DNA of 64,000 bases from Mariprofundus sp. (GCA_021772775.1 JAJFLH010000036.1:24800-88799), one strand, 5' to 3'. Shown: positions 39,144 to 48,979, counted from the first letter of the stretch. The notes: generated from the letters alone by a model not told the origin. Translations and numbers: made by a program.

Positions 39144-39935
39144 GTGAAAACAAAAATTGCACAAACGCGTTGGAAACAGGTGCTTCGGGCTATCGATGAA
39201 ATCGCTGGCAAGGATCAACTGGCATTTATAACCACCCAGCGTGTATCGAGGCAGTCCGGCATTTCTGACGGTGTTCTGTTTCGTCATTTTTCTACCAAAG
39301 AAGTCATGTTGGCAACCTGGGTAGAGACTCGCGGCGATCAACTGCGCCTTCTGCTTGATGCCATGCCTGCCGGTCGAAGTGGTCTGATCTATCTGCTACA
39401 GCAGCTATTTCAACAAAAAGTCTTATTGAACTTTTTATGCTGCCAGCCAATGGACACACCATATTTACGGCAACTTTTGGACTCGTACCGTCTGCAATTC
39501 AACAGGGTCATACAGACCCGAATTGAGTTAATGAGTTCAACACCCATAGGAGTCACATCGGATGTACTTATCGATCATCTGATGCAATCGATTTATCGTG
39601 CCTGGAACCCCGACAACCCTGAGCGGGACTGGCAAAAGGAGCATCTCATGAATCAATTACCTTGGGAAAAAAACGAGATCAAAGACAACACGTTTCCATC
39701 ACAAGATATTATGCAAAGGCTAGCACTCAATGATAGCGGCTTTGTCTTTGACCCGGTCAATGGCAAGAGCTTCACAGCCAATGAAACAGGCATATATGCG
39801 CTGCGTTTTCTGCAACACAGTAGTGATAGCGAAGCTCTGTTGGTGGCTATTGCACGCGATTTCGAAGTCAGTCAATCCGATGCTGCGCGTGATATCACCG
39901 AGTTCTCCAGCCAACTGCGCAAGTTTCTGCAATGA
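39144..39935 (+). CDS. TetR-family HTH regulator fused to a C-terminal PqqD/RRE-like domain
   Basis: N-terminal TQRVSRQSGISDGVLFRHFSTKE, and C-terminal LALNDSGFVFDPVNGKSFTANETG...ARDFEVSQSDAARDITEF. GTG start. Confidence 0.8.
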   Translation: MKTKIAQTRWKQVLRAIDEIAGKDQLAFITTQRVSRQSGISDGVLFRHFSTKEVMLATWVETRGDQLRLLLDAMPAGRSGLIYLLQQLFQQKVLLNFLCCQPMDTPYLRQLLDSYRLQFNRVIQTRIELMSSTPIGVTSDVLIDHLMQSIYRAWNPDNPERDWQKEHLMNQLPWEKNEIKDNTFPSQDIMQRLALNDSGFVFDPVNGKSFTANETGIYALRFLQHSSDSEALLVAIARDFEVSQSDAARDITEFSSQLRKFLQ

Positions 39936-41035
39936 ATCAAGCATCGGATAAAAAAATAACCATCGCTGTCACCGGCATGAATGCCAAGCCAGATAATCCT
40001 GGCCCCGGTCTTGCCGTAGCGCGTTGTTTGCGTCTGGCACACGGCGATCAAGTGCGTATCATAGGTTTGGGTTATGACGTACTCGATGCCGGTTTGTATT
40101 TGGATGATATCTGTGATGCCGCCTATCTACTGCCCTACCCTTCGGCCGGTGAGCAGCAGCTGATGGAGCGTATGGATTATATTCAGCAACAAGAGTCGAT
40201 TGATGTACTTATTCCTTGTCTGGATGCTGAGCTATTAAGTTTTAGTCGCCTGCATCACGAATTTGAACATCTGGGCATTCGTATGCTCATTCCTGATGTC
40301 AGCCAGTTGCGTGATCGCAATAAAGATCGATTAGGGGAACTAGCAAGAAATGCCGGCATCCGATACCCGGAGACAAAAAACATCACCAGCGCCAATTTCT
40401 TTTATCGCTGCCATGATGACAACTGGAGCTATCCGATGGTGGTCAAAGGTATCTTTTACGATGCCACTATTGTGCATAACGCTGATGAAGGGGCCGAAGC
40501 ATTTCGAAACATTGCCGCCAGCTGGGGATATCCGGTTTTGGTGCAACGTTATGTGGAAGGCCATGAGGTGAACCTGACTGCCATTGGAGATGGCAAAGGT
40601 GAACTGCTTGGGGCTGTCATGATGCGCAAACAGGCCGTCACCGATAAAGGTAAAGCCTGGTCATGTGTCACTATTGAGGATCAGCGATTGGAGAGTGATG
40701 CGCTGAAACTGGTGCAGGCACTGCAGTGGGCAGGCCCTTTGGAAGTGGAAATGCTCAAGGAGTCAGACGGACAATACTTGCTGATTGAAATCAACCCCCG
40801 CTTCCCTGCCTGGATTTATCTTGCAGCTGAGGCAGGCAGCAATCTACCAGCGGGTTTAGTGGATTTGATCATGAACAAACAGAGTTTATTTGAGCCCCCC
40901 AAAACAGGCATGATGATGATTCGTTACGCGCAAGAGACCGTCATTGATTTGAGTACCTTCGAAGCCATGGCCATGCATGGCCGTTATATAGCAGATGTGA
41001 ACAGAGAAAATGGGCAGGAGCTAAATTATGAATGA
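39932..41035 (+). CDS. ATP-grasp-domain protein (amide ligase-like)
   Basis: IDVLIPCLDAEL, YPMVVKG, LVQRYVEGHE, GPLEVEM and LIEINPRF motifs. Confidence 0.9.
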   Translation: MNQASDKKITIAVTGMNAKPDNPGPGLAVARCLRLAHGDQVRIIGLGYDVLDAGLYLDDICDAAYLLPYPSAGEQQLMERMDYIQQQESIDVLIPCLDAELLSFSRLHHEFEHLGIRMLIPDVSQLRDRNKDRLGELARNAGIRYPETKNITSANFFYRCHDDNWSYPMVVKGIFYDATIVHNADEGAEAFRNIAASWGYPVLVQRYVEGHEVNLTAIGDGKGELLGAVMMRKQAVTDKGKAWSCVTIEDQRLESDALKLVQALQWAGPLEVEMLKESDGQYLLIEINPRFPAWIYLAAEAGSNLPAGLVDLIMNKQSLFEPPKTGMMMIRYAQETVIDLSTFEAMAMHGRYIADVNRENGQELNYE

Positions 41036-42434
41036 TGCAACGCATGAAATAAGTGAAAAAAAGAGATGGAGCAAACCCACGCTAACACCGCACCGCATCG
41101 GTTCGTTAAACAAGTTTGGCAGTGTCAGCGGTGGTCATTATCAGGATAGCTTTGAAGGTGTTCCCATTGCATCCCTCTTAGAAGAGTACGGTTCACCGCT
41201 ATTCGTTCTGTCGGAACAACGTCTGCGTAATAATGTGCGCAAACTTCTGCGCGCCTTTGAAACGCGCTATGGCAATGTCATCTACAGCTGGTCCTATAAA
41301 ACTAACTATCTGGCAGCTGTCTGCAGCACCCTGCATCAGGAAGGCGCATGGGCCGAAGTAGTTTCAGCATTCGAATATGAAAAAGCCCGCCAGCTTGGCA
41401 TGCCTGCAGAAAAAATCCTCTTTAATGGCCCGCACAAAGAGCGTCCCATCCTTGAGCGCGTGGTTGCAGAAGGTGCACGTATTCATATCGATCATCTCGA
41501 TGAACTTTATCTATTGGAAGATGTTGCCAAAGCGGCAGGCAAACAAGTTGATGTCACCATGCGTCTCAATTTCGACACAGGATTCACCGAACCATGGAGT
41601 CGTTTCGGTTTTAATATCGAATCAGGTCAGGCCCTCGATGCAGCCCGCATTCTCGGTGATAGCAAATATCTCAACCTGTGTGGTCTGCACAGTCATCTGG
41701 GCACATTTATTCTCGATCCTCGCGCTTATGGTGTACAAGTCCGAATCATGTGTGCTTTTATGGATAAGGTAGAAGTACTAACTGGCTGCACAATCGAAAG
41801 CATCGATATTGGTGGCGGTTTTGCCTCCATGAACTCCTTGCAAGGCACCTATTTGCCACCGGAACAGGTAGTACCAAGCATGGATCAGTATGCCGAAACG
41901 ATCTGCACTGCACTGAATGATGCTACCCGCGAACGTGATCTGCAGGGCAAGGGCAGACCTCGCCTTATTTTGGAAAGCGGCAGAGCCGTTGTTGATGATG
42001 CTGAAATTCTGGTCTCATCTGTCGTCGCCAATAAACGCATGCCCGATGGCAGACGTTCGGTTGTCATTGATGCAGGTGTGAATCTGCTGTTTACCGGGTT
42101 TTGGTACAATCATCAGGTCACACCGACGCGCCAACTCGAAGGCGTGCCAGAAGACACCGTGCTCTACGGCCCCTTATGTATGAATATCGATATCATGCGT
42201 GCATCGGTACTACTGCCACCACTAAATGTCAGTGACTCCATTATTTTTAGTAATGTGGGCGCTTATAATAACACCCAATGGATGCAGTTTATTGAATACC
42301 GCCCCAATGTGGTGATGGTGCATGCCGGCAATCAGGTCTCGATTGTGAGAACTGCAGAAGATCTGCATGTGATGACCGAACAGGAGAGCGTTCCTGCTCA
42401 TCTCTGCTCGGTTGAACCACAGCAGGGCGATTAA
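41028..42434 (+). CDS. PLP-dependent fold-III decarboxylase (diaminopimelate/ornithine decarboxylase family) with N-terminal extension
   Basis: YSWSYKTNY (PLP Lys), FNGP, SRFG, GLHSHLG, DIGGGF, ESGR, GPLC and NVGAY motifs. Confidence 0.9.
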   Translation: MNDATHEISEKKRWSKPTLTPHRIGSLNKFGSVSGGHYQDSFEGVPIASLLEEYGSPLFVLSEQRLRNNVRKLLRAFETRYGNVIYSWSYKTNYLAAVCSTLHQEGAWAEVVSAFEYEKARQLGMPAEKILFNGPHKERPILERVVAEGARIHIDHLDELYLLEDVAKAAGKQVDVTMRLNFDTGFTEPWSRFGFNIESGQALDAARILGDSKYLNLCGLHSHLGTFILDPRAYGVQVRIMCAFMDKVEVLTGCTIESIDIGGGFASMNSLQGTYLPPEQVVPSMDQYAETICTALNDATRERDLQGKGRPRLILESGRAVVDDAEILVSSVVANKRMPDGRRSVVIDAGVNLLFTGFWYNHQVTPTRQLEGVPEDTVLYGPLCMNIDIMRASVLLPPLNVSDSIIFSNVGAYNNTQWMQFIEYRPNVVMVHAGNQVSIVRTAEDLHVMTEQESVPAHLCSVEPQQGD

Positions 42435-42436
42435 GC

Positions 42437-44647
42437 TTGCTCTTCACGCCACTGCAAAACCAGCTGAAAGCCTCTGTGACAAAAACAGCCACAGGCCTGT
42501 TCAGAGCCTATGGGGCAATTCTTTTTGCTGAGAAGCCTTGGATTGGTAGCCTCTTTTTGCTTGCCACCTTCTGGTTTCCCAATGCTGGTTTTGCAGGGCT
42601 ACTGGCTGCAATAACGGGTATGTTAACGGCCCGACTATTGAAATTCAGGAATCTGGAAAGCGGTCTGCATGTATACAACAGCCTGCTGGTCGGCCTATCA
42701 CTTGGGGCATACTACACCCTCGATATTCATCTGGCTGTGCTGATTGTATTGGGTGCAGTACTGGCAGTCTTCGCTACCGTTGCCATGGCTGATATAGCAT
42801 GGCGCCTGGGCCGATTGCCGGTCTTAAGCCTGCCTTTTGTGATCGTTGCCCTGACGGTAACACTGGCAGCACACAGCTATGGCACATTAAGCCGTTATCT
42901 GGTGCCACTGGTTCCCAATGAGGGATTGATTTCACCCTTTATAGATCAGCTCCTTACAGCACTCGGTTCGGCTTTTTTCACACCCCATCCACTGGCTGGA
43001 CTGCTACTGTTTACAGGGCTATTGATCTCATCACGCTATCTGGCTCTGCTGGCCGTCGCAGGATTTTTATGCGGCTTTTCGGCCTATGCATTCCTCTCCG
43101 GCAGTCCACATCCCGATCTGGTGGCATGGAATGGCTTTAATTTTATTCTCGTGGCTATGGCACTCGGTGGTCTATTTACCGTACCCAGTTTGCCAACCTT
43201 TCTATTGGCCATGGTAGGTGCAGTTATTGCTGCGCTTGTCACCTCTGCCTCTGAAACGTTTATGCTGGTTTACGGCCTACCGGTGATGGCCCTACCCTTT
43301 TTAATTACCACACTGACTATTCTTCTTGCGCTTACCCACAGGCCAGCCTCTGATTCTTTACAGCTTACTTTGGATGCACCGACGCTTCCAGAAAAAAGTG
43401 CCGAACGAGCACGTCTGGCTATGGTTCGACATGGTGAATTTAACAGTATTCCTGTGCTAGCTCCGTTTTATGGTCGTTGGGAGGTTTATCAGGGCTTTAA
43501 TGGAAAACATACACATCAAGCGCCATGGCAACACGCACTCGACTTTTACATTGTTGAAGATGAACAGAGCTATCATACCGATGGTGTGAACTTGGTGGAT
43601 TATTACTGTTTTGGTCTACCGGTACTTTCTCCGGTTGGTGGCTATGTTGTAAAAACACTGGATAGCCTACCAGACAATCCTCCCGGCCAGGTTGATTTGG
43701 AAAACAACTGGGGCAATCATGTAGTGATCCGTATGCCTAATGGCCTCTATGCCCTGCTCGCACATCTAAAACAGGGCAGTGTGTGTGTAAAAACAGGGGC
43801 ATATCTGCAACCCGGGCAACAGCTTGCTGAATGCGGCAGTTCTGGCCGCTCCCCTCAGCCGCATCTGCATCTGCATATTCAATGGGGTGAAGCGCTTGGC
43901 TCAGCCACCCACCCTTTCCACTTAACCACAGTATTACATCAATCCAATGATCATAGTTCAACAGACTCCCCATCAAACCACACGACTCACGCAGACTTCA
44001 AACTGTTTTCCCGTCCCACTGAGGGAGAGCGTATCATGATGCCCAAAGTTGACTTGGCACTGGTCGAAAGTTTGAGATTAAGTGTGGGCAGGAAATTTTG
44101 TTATCAGGTCACACATGGCAATAGATCAGAAAAAAGAGAGCTGTTGGTCACCCTCAATTTAGCGGGGCAGTTACGCCTGACTGCAGATTCAGGTGCCAGT
44201 GCTGCATTCACTTCACAAGATCATCTGCTGGCATTTTATGATCGCCAGGGGCCTAAAGATGTATTTTTAGATACATGGTTACTGGCGCTCGGTTTGATGC
44301 CATTAACGGAAGGGGAATTAAACTGGAACGATCAACCTTCGATGCAGCTGCTACCCATGAGCTGGAAACAGAACTGGCTGGGTAAACTATTACGCCCATT
44401 GGGCGGTGGCATCGACAGCCGTTATGAGCGTCAATGGGATGGTAAATATTGGCAACAATCGGCCCAGCACAGCTTATCTCTTAGTTTAGGGCAACAGATC
44501 AAAGCGCAGTCATCAGTAAGTATTGAACCCCGCATGGGATGCAAACGCATTTCGATCAATAGTGCAGCAGGAAACCTTGAGGCCACACTGCTGGAAGTAG
44601 GGCAAAAAGCAGATGCCGGTATTCCAGCATGGAAAATTAAGGCATGA
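42437..44647 (+). CDS. Urea-transporter (UT)-family membrane domain fused to an M23-like peptidase domain and an unknown C-terminal domain
   Basis: UT repeats LPVLSLPF and LPVMALPF, plus YNSLLVG and GFNFILV. M23 motifs PVLSP, NWGNHVVI, AHLKQGS and SGRSPQPHLH. TTG start. Confidence 0.85.
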   Translation: MLFTPLQNQLKASVTKTATGLFRAYGAILFAEKPWIGSLFLLATFWFPNAGFAGLLAAITGMLTARLLKFRNLESGLHVYNSLLVGLSLGAYYTLDIHLAVLIVLGAVLAVFATVAMADIAWRLGRLPVLSLPFVIVALTVTLAAHSYGTLSRYLVPLVPNEGLISPFIDQLLTALGSAFFTPHPLAGLLLFTGLLISSRYLALLAVAGFLCGFSAYAFLSGSPHPDLVAWNGFNFILVAMALGGLFTVPSLPTFLLAMVGAVIAALVTSASETFMLVYGLPVMALPFLITTLTILLALTHRPASDSLQLTLDAPTLPEKSAERARLAMVRHGEFNSIPVLAPFYGRWEVYQGFNGKHTHQAPWQHALDFYIVEDEQSYHTDGVNLVDYYCFGLPVLSPVGGYVVKTLDSLPDNPPGQVDLENNWGNHVVIRMPNGLYALLAHLKQGSVCVKTGAYLQPGQQLAECGSSGRSPQPHLHLHIQWGEALGSATHPFHLTTVLHQSNDHSSTDSPSNHTTHADFKLFSRPTEGERIMMPKVDLALVESLRLSVGRKFCYQVTHGNRSEKRELLVTLNLAGQLRLTADSGASAAFTSQDHLLAFYDRQGPKDVFLDTWLLALGLMPLTEGELNWNDQPSMQLLPMSWKQNWLGKLLRPLGGGIDSRYERQWDGKYWQQSAQHSLSLSLGQQIKAQSSVSIEPRMGCKRISINSAAGNLEATLLEVGQKADAGIPAWKIKA

Positions 44648-44689
44648 ACAATACGATGAATTTCAAAAAAATGAAAATTGGAGGATAAT

Positions 44690-45592
44690 ATGAATATACA
44701 ACGGCACATGGTTTTGATGGCCTTTATCGCCAGCCTGTTCTCTGTTCAGCATACAGCCATGGCAGAAGAGAGTGACTGGACACTGAAAACAGATATTCAA
44801 GCCATCTATGGCAGTTACAGCGGTTCTCTTTCGCGCAAATCCCTTACCGGCGGCGGCCTGATTCTTAATGCGGATTATCTTGATCTGGGCGGTTTTTCAT
44901 TGGGTGCGAATTACGCCCAACTCGCATTCAGAAATGTCACCAATGATATCAAACAACAATCCTATTACGGAAGCTTGCACTACAACGCCTACCTCGATGC
45001 CATTCCCGGCCCGCTGACGCTGCGTTTGGATGGGCATGGTATAAATAATAATGACGCCAGTGGAAACACCGACAATGTGCGTGTCATTGCGCCACAAATA
45101 TCTTTTTTGAATTATGACAAAAGCTTTTATGCTGATCTCGGCTATGCCTATTCAACCTATCAGAACAACCTCAAAGTACATCAATTCACACCCACACTGG
45201 GCTTTGGCTTTAATGCATTGGCCGACTGGATACGCATACGCGGCTACTTCATTGATCCATCCAACGCATTACGTGCCCAAAACAAAAATAGCACCACCGC
45301 TGTAGAAGCCAAATGGACACATTGGTTTGATCCCGGTTCATGGCATAAACTAGATAACATGCAAATAGCGGGACTGGTAGGCGAAAGAATTTACGCTGTT
45401 GATAACGATGCAGCCGCTGTTTACAACCTGACAGACATTCAGCGTGGCTCCGTCTCTGTCGCTTTACAATGGAAGTTAACAGAACAGCTCAGTCTAATGC
45501 TGGTCGGAGGAAATGAACGTTATTTGAACAACACAGTTTCTGATGCCTACAGCAATCGTTATGGTTACCTTAATCTATCCACACAATGGTAA
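44690..45592 (+). CDS. Outer-membrane beta-barrel protein of unknown family
   Basis: Signal peptide (TAMA/EE), alternating beta-strand pattern and C-terminal YLNLSTQW. RBS GGAGG before ATG at 44690. Confidence 0.8.
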   Translation: MNIQRHMVLMAFIASLFSVQHTAMAEESDWTLKTDIQAIYGSYSGSLSRKSLTGGGLILNADYLDLGGFSLGANYAQLAFRNVTNDIKQQSYYGSLHYNAYLDAIPGPLTLRLDGHGINNNDASGNTDNVRVIAPQISFLNYDKSFYADLGYAYSTYQNNLKVHQFTPTLGFGFNALADWIRIRGYFIDPSNALRAQNKNSTTAVEAKWTHWFDPGSWHKLDNMQIAGLVGERIYAVDNDAAAVYNLTDIQRGSVSVALQWKLTEQLSLMLVGGNERYLNNTVSDAYSNRYGYLNLSTQW

Positions 45593-45615
45593 TGTTCAAT
45601 GCAAAGGAGAGCATC

Positions 45616-46236
45616 ATGTTAAAGTTTATATTGCTTCCAATCACATCAATTATTGTTGTGCTGATCAGTTTCACCACCACCGTTTACAGTGCTGAAATCA
45701 AAAGTCCTTGGAGTACCTCTTACACTTTAGAGGCCAATGGCGAATATGAAAAAGCCGCCTCAGTCATCTATCAATTTATAGACAGAGGCGCTGAAAATGA
45801 ATTTGCTCTGATACGCTATGGATGGCTCAATTATCTGCAAGGCAACTTCAATGACTCCATTCAGGCCTACCAACGGGCACTTGATCGCAACAATCGCTCT
45901 GTAGATGCACGGTTAGGCATTGCGCTTCCTCTTATGGCTCAGCGACGCTGGAGCAGTGCAGTGCGTTATTTGAAACAGGTCATAGGGCACTCCCCTCTCA
46001 ATTATACAGCCCATATCCGTTTGATGATCTGCGAAGAAGGCTTGCGCAAATGGGAGACTCTGGAAAAACATGCCAAAGAAGTCAGCATCCACTATCCCAC
46101 CGACACCTTAGCTCTGGTTTATCTTGCCCGTGCACATGCATGGCAGGGCGACAAACAAAAAGCCTATGCCGCATATAAACGCGTGCTTGTACGATACCCT
46201 GAACATCTGGAGGCTATCCGTTATTTAAACCCATAA
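45616..46236 (+). CDS. Secreted tetratricopeptide-repeat protein
   Basis: Signal peptide and TPR patterns (GWLNYLQGNFNDSIQAYQRAL, LARAHAWQGDKQKAYAAYKRVL). RBS AAGGAG. Confidence 0.85.
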   Translation: MLKFILLPITSIIVVLISFTTTVYSAEIKSPWSTSYTLEANGEYEKAASVIYQFIDRGAENEFALIRYGWLNYLQGNFNDSIQAYQRALDRNNRSVDARLGIALPLMAQRRWSSAVRYLKQVIGHSPLNYTAHIRLMICEEGLRKWETLEKHAKEVSIHYPTDTLALVYLARAHAWQGDKQKAYAAYKRVLVRYPEHLEAIRYLNP

Positions 46237-46270: not shown

Positions 46271-48979
46271 ATGCATGATAGACAAGGTGTGAGCGACATA
46301 AAAATACAGCGCGGCATGCGTTGGCGACTAATGCTTGGCATGGTCGGCATGATTGTGACCATGGTTGTTCTGTTAACCGTGTTACAGATCTCTGCACAAA
46401 AGGATAGTCTGAATAGCGCGCTTGCCTCACATACTTTTTTTCTTGAAGAGCAGCTGCATAAGAAAGCTGAAAAGGCTAGCAGCCAGATGTCAGGTCATAT
46501 CGAACGACTTATTTCAACCTATCGCCTTACTCTGGCCAATGAGTTTATTCGTAATGTCATCCGGGATATTGATGATTTGAGTTATGTCATATTGATGGAG
46601 GGAGGTGCTCCAAAGATAGCCATCGGCAGTGACCTTGTGGATGCCGAGTTACGTAAACATATTCTATCCGGTGACATTTCAGGTTTAGCGGCAAAACAAA
46701 CAGAAAAAATGCATCATGATTTTATTTTCGCAGATCATGGTTTCATGGAAAACGTAGTACCAATCATGCGGCATCAGGAGCAATGGGGGGTATTACGCCT
46801 TGGTTTTTCACGCGATGAATTGAATAACAATTTGGCATCTTCGCAGCTACGCATTCATCAAGAGATCAAAGATGCCTTATTCAAAACCTCGTTAACGTCG
46901 TTGATCTTTCTCATACTGGGGGCATTAACGGTCTATTATTTTGCCCGCCGCTGGACTGATCCCATTCAAAAGCTGGTGCATTTCTCCAACCGACTCGCCA
47001 GTGGTGATTTTTCTGCCACAGCCCATATCAGTACACGCCGTGATGATGAGATTGGTCTATTGGTTGTATCTCTGGAAGATATGGCAGCCTCCCTCAAACA
47101 GTCGTATGCTCAACTGGAAGAGCACAGTCATACACTCGAAGAGAAAGTAGAAAAACGCACCCATGAGTTAGCCGAAGCCCGTGATAAAGCCCTGGCTGCA
47201 ACACAAACAAAGAGTGAATTCCTGGCCAATATGTCGCATGAGATTCGCACCCCGATGAATGCAATCATAGGTATGGCACATCTGGCGCAGGATATGGCCA
47301 CAGCAGCTCCCCAGCGCCAGTATTTAAATAAGATTCTCACCGCTTCAGAGAACTTATTAAAAATCATCAATGATATTCTTGATTTCTCTAAAGTCGAAGC
47401 GGGTAAACTGGTATTGGAAGCCACAGACTTTCAGCTACAAGAGACGCTGAATCATGTTGAAAGCATCGCAAGTGTCCAGGCACATCAGAAAGGTCTCGAC
47501 TTTGCCTTTGACTCTCCAGCTGATTTACCTGTATTGCATGGTGATTCATTGCGTTTGGGGCAAATTTTACTCAACCTGACCACCAATGCGGTGAAGTTTA
47601 CAGCCTCAGGACATGTGCGTATCACGGTCGAAGTGGTTGAAAAAAACGAATCAACTATCGATCTTCATTTCAGCATCTCCGATTCTGGCATAGGCATGGC
47701 TGAAGAGCAGATGTCACATCTGTTTGAAGCCTTTACACAGGCCGATGCTTCGACCACGCGCAATTATGGCGGCACAGGATTGGGGCTCGCCATCTGCAAA
47801 CAACTGGTTGACATGATGCAGGGCAAAATCGTCGTTGAGAGCACGCCGAATCAAGGTAGTTGTTTCCATGTAAACATACAATTCGGCTTAGGCAATCCAC
47901 TCTTTATAGCTACAAAAACACCATCACCCCAAACCATGCAGTCGCTGCAAGGAACACGCTTGTTATTGGTTGAAGATTATGAAATAAACCAGCAGGTCGC
48001 AGAAGGGTTGTTATCCAAAGCAGGTGTAAGTCTGCACATCGTCGATAACGGAAAAAAGGCTGTTGATGCCGTTAAGAGCGAGGTATTTGATGGTGTTCTG
48101 ATGGATATGCAGATGCCTGTCATGGGTGGCATTGAAGCCACCCGCCTCATTCGTGCCGATGGGCGTTTCAATGAGCTTCCGATCATCGCCATGACCGCCA
48201 ATGCCATGCCCGAAGATCGACAAATGTGCATCGAAGCAGGCATGAATGATCATCTCACCAAACCCATTCATCCAGACGCCCTCTACAACACCTTGTCACG
48301 CTGGATCACAATTTCAGCACCAGCCATCACTGCAGAACCTTTACCCATGAAGAGCCCAAAGACCAATGATGATATCGGTTTTTCAGCACTGCGTGGCATT
48401 GATATCTCAGATGGTTTGCAACGGGTTGCGGGTGACCAACAGTTGTATGCGGCTATTTTATGTAAATTTCGTCATTCACAAGCTGATAGTTTGCAGAATA
48501 TGCAAGCCGCAACCGTAGCAAGTGATTTTGAACAGGCGGCATCTATAGCGCATGCCTTAATAGGTTTAGCTGGCAATATTGGAGCCAAAGAGCTCGCAGC
48601 ACATATCCGCACATTGGAATTTTCATTTACAAACGGTAAAGCTATTGATCTGCCAACATGGCAAGCTGCAGAGCAGCAGCTCTCATACATTATCGACAGC
48701 ATAGAACCCCTATGCGAAACAATCGCTACAACTAAAAAAACAGCTCCAGCTACAGATCATGCAGCAGCCAAACAGCTCATCACTCAGATGAGAAGCTTAT
48801 TAGAAGAGTCTGATGGCGATGCTGTTGATCTACTCGATGAACTCAGCGCAACTCTGGGAGATCATGCAACGAATCAGCATATTTCAATGCTCAGGCAGCA
48901 TCTCTCCGGCTATGACTTCGACGCAGCACTGGAAGATCTATCTGCCATATCACAACTGAACACCAATGCAGAAGAATAA
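46271..48979 (+). CDS. Membrane hybrid histidine kinase: periplasmic sensor, HAMP, HisKA, HATPase, REC, Hpt
   Basis: Two TMs, FLANMSHEIRTPMNAII, NLTTNAVKFT, YGGTGLGL, LMDMQMP and Hpt motif AHALIGLAGNIGA. Start uncertain. Confidence 0.92.
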   Translation: MHDRQGVSDIKIQRGMRWRLMLGMVGMIVTMVVLLTVLQISAQKDSLNSALASHTFFLEEQLHKKAEKASSQMSGHIERLISTYRLTLANEFIRNVIRDIDDLSYVILMEGGAPKIAIGSDLVDAELRKHILSGDISGLAAKQTEKMHHDFIFADHGFMENVVPIMRHQEQWGVLRLGFSRDELNNNLASSQLRIHQEIKDALFKTSLTSLIFLILGALTVYYFARRWTDPIQKLVHFSNRLASGDFSATAHISTRRDDEIGLLVVSLEDMAASLKQSYAQLEEHSHTLEEKVEKRTHELAEARDKALAATQTKSEFLANMSHEIRTPMNAIIGMAHLAQDMATAAPQRQYLNKILTASENLLKIINDILDFSKVEAGKLVLEATDFQLQETLNHVESIASVQAHQKGLDFAFDSPADLPVLHGDSLRLGQILLNLTTNAVKFTASGHVRITVEVVEKNESTIDLHFSISDSGIGMAEEQMSHLFEAFTQADASTTRNYGGTGLGLAICKQLVDMMQGKIVVESTPNQGSCFHVNIQFGLGNPLFIATKTPSPQTMQSLQGTRLLLVEDYEINQQVAEGLLSKAGVSLHIVDNGKKAVDAVKSEVFDGVLMDMQMPVMGGIEATRLIRADGRFNELPIIAMTANAMPEDRQMCIEAGMNDHLTKPIHPDALYNTLSRWITISAPAITAEPLPMKSPKTNDDIGFSALRGIDISDGLQRVAGDQQLYAAILCKFRHSQADSLQNMQAATVASDFEQAASIAHALIGLAGNIGAKELAAHIRTLEFSFTNGKAIDLPTWQAAEQQLSYIIDSIEPLCETIATTKKTAPATDHAAAKQLITQMRSLLEESDGDAVDLLDELSATLGDHATNQHISMLRQHLSGYDFDAALEDLSAISQLNTNAEE

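Follow-up and report, generated by a model that had tools for sequence, protein, structure and literature searches.

We analysed a 64,000-nucleotide (nt) stretch of DNA from Mariprofundus sp. (GCA_021772775.1, JAJFLH010000036.1:24800-88799), referred to below as the window; all window positions are counted from its first letter. The gene under study encodes a protein in which a membrane domain of the urea-transporter (UT) family is joined to a Peptidase_M23-type domain and a C-terminal beta-barrel domain, and we refer to its product as the fusion protein. The open reading frame (ORF) begins with a TTG codon, 2 nt past the stop codon of an upstream decarboxylase gene. The gene and its parts were located as follows.

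42437..44647, + strand: whole fusion gene, encoding UT domain, linker helix, M23 domain and beta-barrel domain (736 amino acids)
42497..43333, + strand: membrane domain of the urea-transporter fold, residues 21-299 (Pfam PF03253, Foldseek)
43388..43432, + strand: charged linker helix after the last membrane helix, residues 318-332, starting with a PE motif (AlphaFold2 helix)
43445..43936, + strand: M23/LytM-fold domain, about residues 337-500, predicted to be cytoplasmic (Pfam PF01551, VIA, Foldseek, hhalign)
43991..44644, + strand: C-terminal beta-barrel domain with inner helices, about residues 519-736 (AlphaFold2; predicted local distance difference test, pLDDT, mostly >95)

Both Pfam assignments were well above their cut-offs. 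The UT match (residues 21-299) had an E-value of 4.9e-52 and 177.3 bits against a cut-off of 25, and the Peptidase_M23 match (residues 393-484) had an E-value of 5.5e-12 and 46.2 bits against a cut-off of 28.7. The latter covered profile positions 13-90 of 96, so that the first zinc motif fell outside the alignment, and 252 residues followed it on the C-terminal side. AlphaFold2 modelled the full-length protein with a pLDDT of 95.6 and a predicted template modelling score (pTM) of 0.93; this pTM suggests a fixed arrangement of the three domains. Within the linker helix, P318, E319 and R331 were nearly invariant in the family, and the PE motif aligned with that of the Desulfovibrio urea channel dvUT and of UT-B.

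The fusion gene belongs to a large family. A scan of 1.84 billion cluster representatives returned 9172 matches to the fusion protein at E<=1e-3 and 672 at E<=1e-30. Almost all of the best 150 matches were 680-790 amino acids long, and most of them aligned over most of the query length. PF03253 and PF01551 were both present in 120/120 close homologues among the matches listed. Named sources included Mariprofundus, Ghiorsea, other Zetaproteobacteria and Gammaproteobacteria, and the gene was also found in loci from one Thermotogota metagenome-assembled genome (MAG) and one Desulfobacteraceae MAG. Where the source gives a name, the homologues are called 'urea transporter'. A UT match over the cut-off was present in 60 of 401 genomes of the window's phylum; 13 of the UT genes were stand-alone, and the remaining matches sat in frames of about 500-870 amino acids. 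In a second phylum, UT matches were found in 10 of 301 genomes (2 stand-alone, 7 fusion-length, 1 split). Fusion-length genes outnumbered stand-alone UT genes in both genome samples. Within its own genus the distribution of the fusion gene was patchy (9/30 genomes), and the window's genome, which is 99.96% complete, has a single UT gene.

A search for shorter relatives found no free-standing close UT relative: it gave 19 matches, most of them partial family members on short contigs, with 17 at E<=2.3e-32 and two weak ones at E-values of 1.4e-6 and 7.9e-4. None of the 4043 candidates above 1288 amino acids scored as a longer fusion, which is weak evidence. Two relatives differed in layout. Protein P0170 (1112 amino acids, from a metagenome) carried an extra beta-lactamase-type hydrolase domain (PF00144, residues 802-1086) C-terminal to the barrel. 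At L024:2412-4240, in the Desulfobacteraceae MAG, the UT part (290 amino acids) and the M23 part (326 amino acids) were separate ORFs overlapping by 25 nt; the barrel domain there seems to be shortened, and the split could be natural or could come from assembly frameshifts.

The UT domain has the fold of characterized urea channels. Foldseek gave target-normalised TM-scores of 0.86 to dvUT (3k3f) and 0.85 to human UT-A2. The score against the NCBIfam Yut equivalog TIGR03441 (urea_trans_yut), however, was 108.7 bits, below the cut-off of 274.6. According to PMC4357013, which gives the filter residues of dvUT, UT-B and UT-A2, the selectivity filter of dvUT has a middle site formed by L84, T130, L247 and T294, an outer site formed by E187, V188, F190 and L293, and an inner site formed by F80 and L129 together with a Gln/Val pair (Q67 and V68 in UT-A2). 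We mapped these residues onto the fusion protein through HMMER alignments to dvUT, and in our own reading of the alignment the Gln/Val pair would correspond to Q24 and V25 of dvUT. Four polar filter positions were found to be altered, two of them within the signature repeats, where LPVLSLPF and LPVMALPF aligned with PALTAPF and PALTWPF of dvUT.

42515..42517, + strand: Ala27, at the pore Gln position (dvUT Q24; alignment to dvUT)
42815..42838, + strand: first signature repeat LPVLSLPF, residues 127-134, with Ser131 instead of the filter Thr (dvUT T130; alignment)
42968..42970, + strand: Ser178, at the pore Glu/Gln position (dvUT E187; alignment to dvUT)
43277..43300, + strand: second signature repeat LPVMALPF, residues 281-288, with Ala285 instead of the filter Thr (dvUT T294; alignment)

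Both repeats lay exactly where the sequence-only reading of this gene, an earlier note made before any database search, had placed them, and the M23 motifs it had named, PHLH (H476, H478), WQHALD (H366, D369) and HTH (H358, T359, H360), were all found in the translation. These channel and M23 features were confirmed to be real and not a chance pattern, because they are kept across 140 family representatives, no two of which share more than about 50% identity. The same 140 representatives were used for all conservation counts below. As a reference, the 13 stand-alone UTs from the 401 genomes of the window's phylum were aligned at the same positions.

Position 27 was occupied by A in 35 family representatives, Q in 33, S in 29 and E in 13, compared with Q in 13/13 stand-alone UTs. 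Position 178 was A in 72, S in 25, G in 13 and T in 12, with E or Q in 1, compared with E or Q in 13/13 stand-alone UTs. At the first Thr position (131) the family had S in 98, G in 13, T in 13, C in 8, N in 5 and A in 3; at the second (285) it had A in 72, T in 27, S in 16, I in 13 and V in 9. The sequence-only reading had asked whether bona fide urea channels commonly carry the same Ser and Ala substitutions. The sampled stand-alone UTs did not, with Thr at the first position in 12/13 and at the second in 13/13. All four canonical polar residues occurred together in 0/140 family members and in 12/13 of these stand-alone UTs, and Thr in both signature repeats occurred in 1/140. In the second phylum, one stand-alone UT was canonical (Q, T, Q, T), and among the eight fusion or split proteins Ser stood at the first Thr position in 7 and Ala at position 178 in 6. 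Judged from these alignments, what marks the family as a whole is the Ser of repeat 1 together with the lost outer-site Glu/Gln, and the Ala of repeat 2 is limited to some lineages. In a quick maximum-likelihood tree, one branch with a Shimodaira-Hasegawa approximate likelihood ratio test (SH-aLRT) support of 100 split 35 fusion UT domains from the 13 stand-alone UTs.

The hydrophobic wall of the pore was retained. Its residues correspond from dvUT to the fusion protein as F80 to Y80, L84 to L84, L129 to L130, F190 to F181, L247 to L238 and L293 to M284, and those followed through the family were kept in most representatives (L84 in 132, L130 in 126, F181 in 113 and L238 in 127). The frames of the two LPxxxxPF repeats were kept as well (P128 in 130, P133 in 131, F134 in 127, P287 in 138 and F288 in 130). 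These counts bear on the possibility that the UT domain conducts nothing and serves as a membrane anchor, probably trimeric, for a cytoplasmic hydrolase; an anchor had also been named as an option in the sequence-only reading. The polar pore residues vary, with at least 14 different residues at position 27, which could mean relaxed selection. A plain anchor, however, would need neither the conserved pore wall and repeat frames nor a complete 10-helix fold, and we consider this explanation distinctly unlikely. From the filter residues, where small residues (Ala, Ser, Gly) take the place of the polar ones that hold urea, we infer instead that the UT domain may conduct a small uncharged solute other than urea.

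We then compared the gene content of genomes with the two kinds of UT gene. No urease alpha subunit (PF00449) and no urea carboxylase (TIGR02712) was found above cut-off in the window's genome. Every one of the 13 genomes with a stand-alone UT had the urease alpha subunit, and 5 of these genomes had its gene no more than 5 kb from the UT gene; of the genomes with the fusion gene, 1/11 had the subunit. The latter were the window's genome and ten others chosen for high completeness, namely five Zetaproteobacteria and five genomes of other families. Because the relatives are not independent, the counts serve as a description and do not amount to a statistical test. The fusion gene was never beside urease genes in the examined loci.

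These results bear on the database name. An ordinary channel for urea, or for urea, ammonia and water, with an accessory domain would agree with the strong Pfam match, the UT fold and the name given by the sources; furthermore, Ser can chemically replace Thr, and some members keep the Thr of repeat 2. The low equivalog score, the missing polar set and the lack of urease or urea carboxylase, both in the window's genome and in the genome comparison, all speak against it, as do the gene neighbourhoods. We therefore regard an ordinary urea channel as very unlikely, and the statement of the sequence-only reading that this is not a plain urea channel was supported.

The M23 domain was recognized by several methods. 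AlphaFold2 modelled residues 321-736 with a pLDDT of 95.6 and a pTM of 0.91. VIA structure searches matched the M23 domain to DipM (Z 14.4), EnpA (Z 14.0) and LytM (Z 13.7), with EnvC also in the range of 14.4-12, and Foldseek matched it to LytM-type domains with E-values of about 1e-5 to 1e-6. When it was compared by hhalign with four canonical M23 domains of the same genome, the probability was 98.4 and the alignment began only at the 'GxPV' strand. The following residues are the candidate metal-binding and catalytic positions.

43514..43516, + strand: His360, second His of HTH, proposed first zinc ligand (H in 139/140)
43541..43543, + strand: Asp369 of WQHALDF, proposed zinc ligand (D in 139/140)
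43763..43765, + strand: His443 of AHL, equivalent of the M23 catalytic His (H in 140/140; aligns with the canonical M23 His)
43862..43870, + strand: His476-Leu-His478, HxH motif (each His in 139/140; aligns with canonical PHLH)

All five residues, H360, D369, H443, H476 and H478, occurred together in 139/140 members. The HxxxD motif of subfamily M23B was absent: the residue four places before D369 is Q365, which is R, Q or K in the family. H360 and D369 form an H-x8-D spacing that was fixed in 139/140 members, and about 18 residues were inserted after Asp369 relative to canonical M23 domains. The sequence-only reading had correctly noticed that WQHALD replaces HxxxD and that HTH lies just upstream; the His of WQHALD, however, is not the conserved one (H366 is H in 83, Y in 43 and F in 7 of 140), and H360 is. 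The role of H360 was assigned from its conservation and by analogy with M23A enzymes. A first His far from the Asp has precedent, because the catalytic residues of beta-lytic protease (M23A) are given as His22, Asp36, His82, His121 and His123 in PMC8715609. The metal site thus appears to be intact and of a variant type, with H360 as its probable first His. The term 'atypical M23' of the sequence-only reading fits the different position of the first His and is too strong for a domain with an invariant catalytic set of five residues.

The window's genome has five separate M23 genes, four of which read canonical HxxxD. The fifth (L092, at G000:C36:139441-139722) is degenerate, with RLQGVQ where the others read HxxxD, and it probably encodes a regulatory LytM factor.

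To place the M23 domain relative to the membrane, we counted lysine and arginine residues in the loops between the helices of the AlphaFold2 model, using the standard UT topology. Across the 140 members, the mean was 10.1 on predicted inner loops and 0.8 on outer loops; when the C-terminal linker was left out, it was 4.9 on inner and 0.8 on outer loops. The model had no membrane helix past residue 300, and residues 318-332 formed the charged helix described above. The M23 domain and all that follows it are predicted to be cytoplasmic, because of this positive-inside bias and because no further membrane helix follows the UT domain.

This location bears on the suggestion of the sequence-only reading that the domain binds peptidoglycan. 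A periplasmic M23 domain, anchored by the UT domain and binding or cleaving peptidoglycan, would agree with the site of action of the characterized M23/LytM structural matches, which is the cell wall, outside the cytoplasm, and with the TPR and barrel proteins encoded next to it, which have signal sequences and are therefore envelope proteins. The charge bias and the absence of an extra helix argue against it. In addition, the UT fold crosses the membrane an even number of times and has its two ends inside, as in tandem UT-A proteins, and the genome already has its five separate M23 genes. The extracytoplasmic location expected of M23 peptidoglycan hydrolases was thus not what the sequence predicted. 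A peptidoglycan role is therefore unlikely given the cytoplasmic placement, and the periplasmic arrangement as a whole is, in our judgement, extremely unlikely.

The C-terminal part, which the sequence-only reading had taken as a tail of unknown fold, was modelled confidently over its last ~220 residues. Long antiparallel strands form a barrel round two helices. The barrel was searched as part of the 321-736 model, and within model residues 223-406 VIA matched vitellogenin (Z 10.8), lipovitellin (Z 10.0), ApoB (Z 9.8), the Bacteroides-group lipoprotein BDI_3050 (Z 9.1) and LolA (Z 8.9). The matches spanned about 125-156 aligned residues. They indicate a barrel shape and no more, because autotransporter membrane barrels scored alike (Z 8-9.8); the modelled barrel possibly holds a ligand. 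No Pfam family was found for the domain, it showed no sequence similarity to the LolA/lipovitellin group (4-12% identity over aligned residues), and a language-model atlas gave no lead (score 0.77).

The M23 and barrel domains might also be non-catalytic. They could act as a gate of the pore that binds a ligand or peptide, or as a docking site for the pathway enzymes, in the manner of inactive LytM domains that regulate other proteins. Many LytM domains are regulators, EnvC, DipM and SpoIIQ were among the structural matches, the M23 part also resembled the regulatory IIA-Glc fold (Z 8.6), and the His of the canonical HxxxD is missing. Regulatory LytM domains, however, lose their metal ligands, as L092 has done, and here the five His and Asp positions are kept in nearly every member over many lineages, which would be difficult to account for if there were no metal site. 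We consider a non-catalytic role doubtful.

The fusion gene lies in a tightly packed operon, in which genes overlap or are 2-35 nt apart. Its neighbours in the window are listed below.

39144..39935, + strand: TetR-type helix-turn-helix plus PqqD-like protein (Pfam PqqD, E 1.2e-7; TetR_N, E 1.6e-4)
39932..41035, + strand: ATP-grasp ligase (Pfam ATPgrasp_Ter and ATP-grasp_3)
41028..42434, + strand: fold-III pyridoxal phosphate decarboxylase (Pfam; profile against PDB)
44678..45592, + strand: probable outer-membrane beta-barrel protein of 304 amino acids with a signal peptide and a C-terminal Trp (sequence)
45586..46236, + strand: TPR protein with an N-terminal signal or anchor (Pfam TPR families)

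This neighbourhood was conserved. In 24 related loci, the decarboxylase gene was directly upstream of the fusion gene in all 24 and the ATP-grasp gene was upstream in 23; the single locus without it ends at a contig edge. The PqqD gene was present in 21 of these loci, the barrel gene in 19 and the TPR gene in 18, and the misses were mostly at contig ends. Among 14 more distant loci, the decarboxylase was directly upstream in 12 and the ATP-grasp gene was visible in 11. The loci with the decarboxylase included ones from Thermotogota and Desulfobacteraceae MAGs, and the barrel gene was syntenic in many loci beyond the 24 as well. The PqqD partner, of a peptide-binding type, was syntenic in related loci, and only its PqqD part was matched in distant ones.

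The two distant loci without the usual decarboxylase came from one genus and carried an analogous set (L074:410-9542, - strand; L075:8606-17733). Their gene order was fusion gene, TPR, decarboxylase, ATP-grasp, C45 acyltransferase/amidase and barrel gene. The decarboxylase was a fold-I Orn/Lys/Arg-type protein of 915 amino acids, with about 280 N-terminal residues outside any assigned domain. The ATP-grasp protein (500 amino acids) was of the PRK06524 type and belonged to another subfamily (NF005096, E 4.7e-153), the C45 (AAT family) acyltransferase/amidase matched PF03417 with an E-value of 7.3e-30, and the barrel encoded next to it was YaiO-like. No PqqD gene was seen in these two loci. In our view, this variant operon keeps the same chemistry by means of unrelated enzymes, and no other finding speaks as strongly for ligation plus decarboxylation as the conserved partner of the fusion protein.

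In a profile search against PDB, the window's decarboxylase matched FslC (7kh2), its closest relative of solved structure, with an E-value of 3e-86 and 293 bits, compared with 210 bits for the best diaminopimelate decarboxylase, and it also matched BtrK (E 1.7e-37). FslC decarboxylates N-citrylornithine, and BtrK acts on carrier-bound glutamate. The 304-residue barrel protein had no Pfam match; its language-model likeness to YaiO clusters was 0.97, which we treat as a lead only. The TPR partner is probably periplasmic, judging from its N-terminal sequence. A complex prediction of the soluble part (321-736) with the decarboxylase scored 0.00, a 'no answer' result that says nothing on binding. 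A classical cluster for a peptide made by the ribosome and modified after translation (RiPP) was considered and rejected, as no small ORF fits inside the operon.

Several further observations concern these neighbours. The decarboxylase has a conserved N-terminal tail ahead of its catalytic domain (41028-41147, + strand), which had the consensus KKxWxKPTLTPHRxGxLNKFGS in 34 sequences, with P17, K29 and G31 invariant. In three genomes the neighbouring TPR protein was fused to a half-UT domain consisting of one five-helix repeat (L076:7072-8643, L077:1894-3459 and L078:6897-8819, all on the - strand), which points to a position of the TPR protein in the membrane, next to the channel. An asparagine-synthase-type amidotransferase was encoded between the fusion gene and the half-UT/TPR gene at L076:8812-10329 (- strand). 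At L077:2-8488, the fusion gene had a decarboxylase fragment on its upstream side and another PqqD/ATP-grasp/decarboxylase set on its downstream side, and this genome may contain two cassette copies in tandem. Sensor histidine kinases adjoined the cassette in several unrelated lineages (window 46271-48979, + strand; L024:4955-7387; L069:3884-5812; L074:12294-16025). Three of these four kinases were hybrid, and the one at L069 had only HisKA and HATPase_c domains. The product of the operon might be sensed as a signal.

Taken together, the sequence evidence describes a real, deeply conserved protein that is probably misnamed a urea transporter. The explanation that we prefer is that it is a channel-hydrolase module for a small amide or amine other than urea, and in our estimate this has an even chance of being right. 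The chemistry of the neighbouring enzymes would fit such a module. The ATP-grasp ligase would make an amide-linked intermediate, and the decarboxylase, which resembles FslC and BtrK and would act on acylated or tethered diamino or acidic amino acids, would take off its alpha-carboxylate. The M23 domain, at the inner pore mouth, would then cleave this amide. Amide bonds to a diamino acid's side-chain amine are what M23B endopeptidases hydrolyse, and by analogy an FslC-type substrate would carry a bond of this kind. The small amine or amide set free would leave through the re-tuned pore, and the TPR protein and the barrel would then take it across the outer membrane; we favour export as the direction. 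The sequence-only reading had proposed a channel repurposed for the product of the operon; this is plausible, and the conserved gene neighbourhood fits it.

In its most specific form, a 'cut-and-exit' machine, the M23 domain would release the decarboxylated product, an amine or amide, from its acyl or peptide carrier directly beneath the re-tuned UT pore. The product would pass on to the periplasmic TPR protein and the YaiO-like barrel, and a small metabolite or signal would in this way be secreted by a new route. We put this forward tentatively, as a possibility less probable than the general module. The same module could also run in the opposite direction, with an uncharged solute entering through the barrel and the pore and being trapped by M23 hydrolysis or by ATP-dependent ligation. 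UT proteins are passive channels in which flow follows the gradient, and a hydrolase at the inner mouth resembles the pairing of urea channels with urease, whose genes were adjacent in 5 of the 13 stand-alone-UT genomes. The ATP-grasp ligase, the decarboxylase and the PqqD-type helper look biosynthetic, however; no recurring catabolic genes were present in the examined neighbourhoods, and M23 grooves suit peptides rather than molecules small enough for a UT pore. We consider import unlikely.

Several points weigh against a channel-hydrolase module for a non-urea solute. The changes in the pore are uneven: the Thr of repeat 2 is kept in 27/140 representatives and in 7/8 fusion or split proteins of the second phylum, and Q or E is kept at position 27 in 46/140. 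One stand-alone UT of the second phylum (L095, on a 2.5-kb contig) was itself divergent at the filter, with the Thr shifted by one position, and one fusion genome (G058) has urease. The UT pore is narrow and would let only very small or thin molecules through. Pfam, the PDB profile search and hhalign all start their alignments past the first zinc motif. No precursor-peptide gene fits in the operon. The direction of flow through a passive channel is not readable from sequence, and catalysis, metal binding and conduction are predicted from sequence and model only.

If the channel-hydrolase reading is correct, it has consequences for annotation. Hundreds of homologues are named 'urea transporter'. 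The name would be wrong for most UT-family genes in the sampled bacteria, where the fusion type may be the commonest 'urea transporter' gene, and conclusions about the nitrogen cycle that build on the name, for example that iron-oxidising Zetaproteobacteria use urea, would mislead. The UT fold would be extended to a new substrate, and the M23 fold would be moved from the cell wall to the cytoplasm. If the cut-and-exit form is true, no UT-fold channel would come before this one in serving a substrate other than urea, as far as our searches show, and no M23 enzyme would come before it in acting catalytically inside the cell. The fusion protein is the most tractable handle on a very widespread operon of ligase, decarboxylase, channel-hydrolase, TPR protein and outer-membrane barrel, since the substrate of the channel would be the product of the pathway or a fragment of it. 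The available part of Cagliani et al. 2026 (PMC12998343) lists UT+M23 as a bacterial architecture and proposes no function there; apart from that listing, our literature searches found nothing on the UT-M23 fusion or its operon.

Compared with known UT channels (dvUT, mammalian UT-A and UT-B, and the Yersinia Yut type), the fusion protein has the same fold, the same two inverted repeats with their LPxxxxPF frame, the same hydrophobic pore wall and the same PE motif after the last helix. It differs from dvUT in four filter residues (Q24 to A, T130 to S, E187 to S and T294 to A). It differs from the UT channels in general by forming a separate clade, by carrying about 430 extra residues that are predicted to be cytoplasmic, and by having no link to urease.

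The M23 domain shares its fold, the HxH motif, the catalytic His and the Asp with both M23B enzymes (LytM, lysostaphin, MepM/ShyA) and M23A enzymes (beta-lytic protease, LasA). M23A enzymes, as far as the source cited above describes them, have their first His well upstream of the Asp, as in the fusion protein. Its first motif reads H-x8-D instead of HxxxD, and, unlike these M23 enzymes, the domain is predicted to lie in the cytoplasm, is joined to a channel and has no peptidoglycan context. The C-terminal domain, modelled as a many-stranded antiparallel barrel around helices, may resemble LolA/LolB and the lipovitellin-vitellogenin-ApoB barrels (Z 8.9-10.8). It differs from them in having no Pfam family and in its predicted cytoplasmic location, and the likeness may reflect only the general shape of a barrel.

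The operon follows the same logic as the rhizoferrin pathway (FslA/FslC, FigA/FigC) and the butirosin pathway (BtrJ/BtrK, of which BtrJ is an ATP-dependent ligase), namely ligation and then decarboxylation of the conjugate. The ligase of the operon, however, is an ATP-grasp enzyme and not a nonribosomal-peptide-synthetase-independent siderophore (NIS) synthetase, the operon has no carrier protein gene, and neither known pathway has a UT-like channel or an M23 domain. The ClbP-type prodrug release peptidases and the LysW/LysX/LysK system offer an analogy in the way of working only, as in both a hydrolase acts last in the pathway and releases the finished small molecule from the group that protected or carried it. 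ClbP is a periplasmic enzyme of the beta-lactamase-type family with a different fold, and LysK is an M20 enzyme. The family type of ClbP recurs as the extra domain of the relative P0170.

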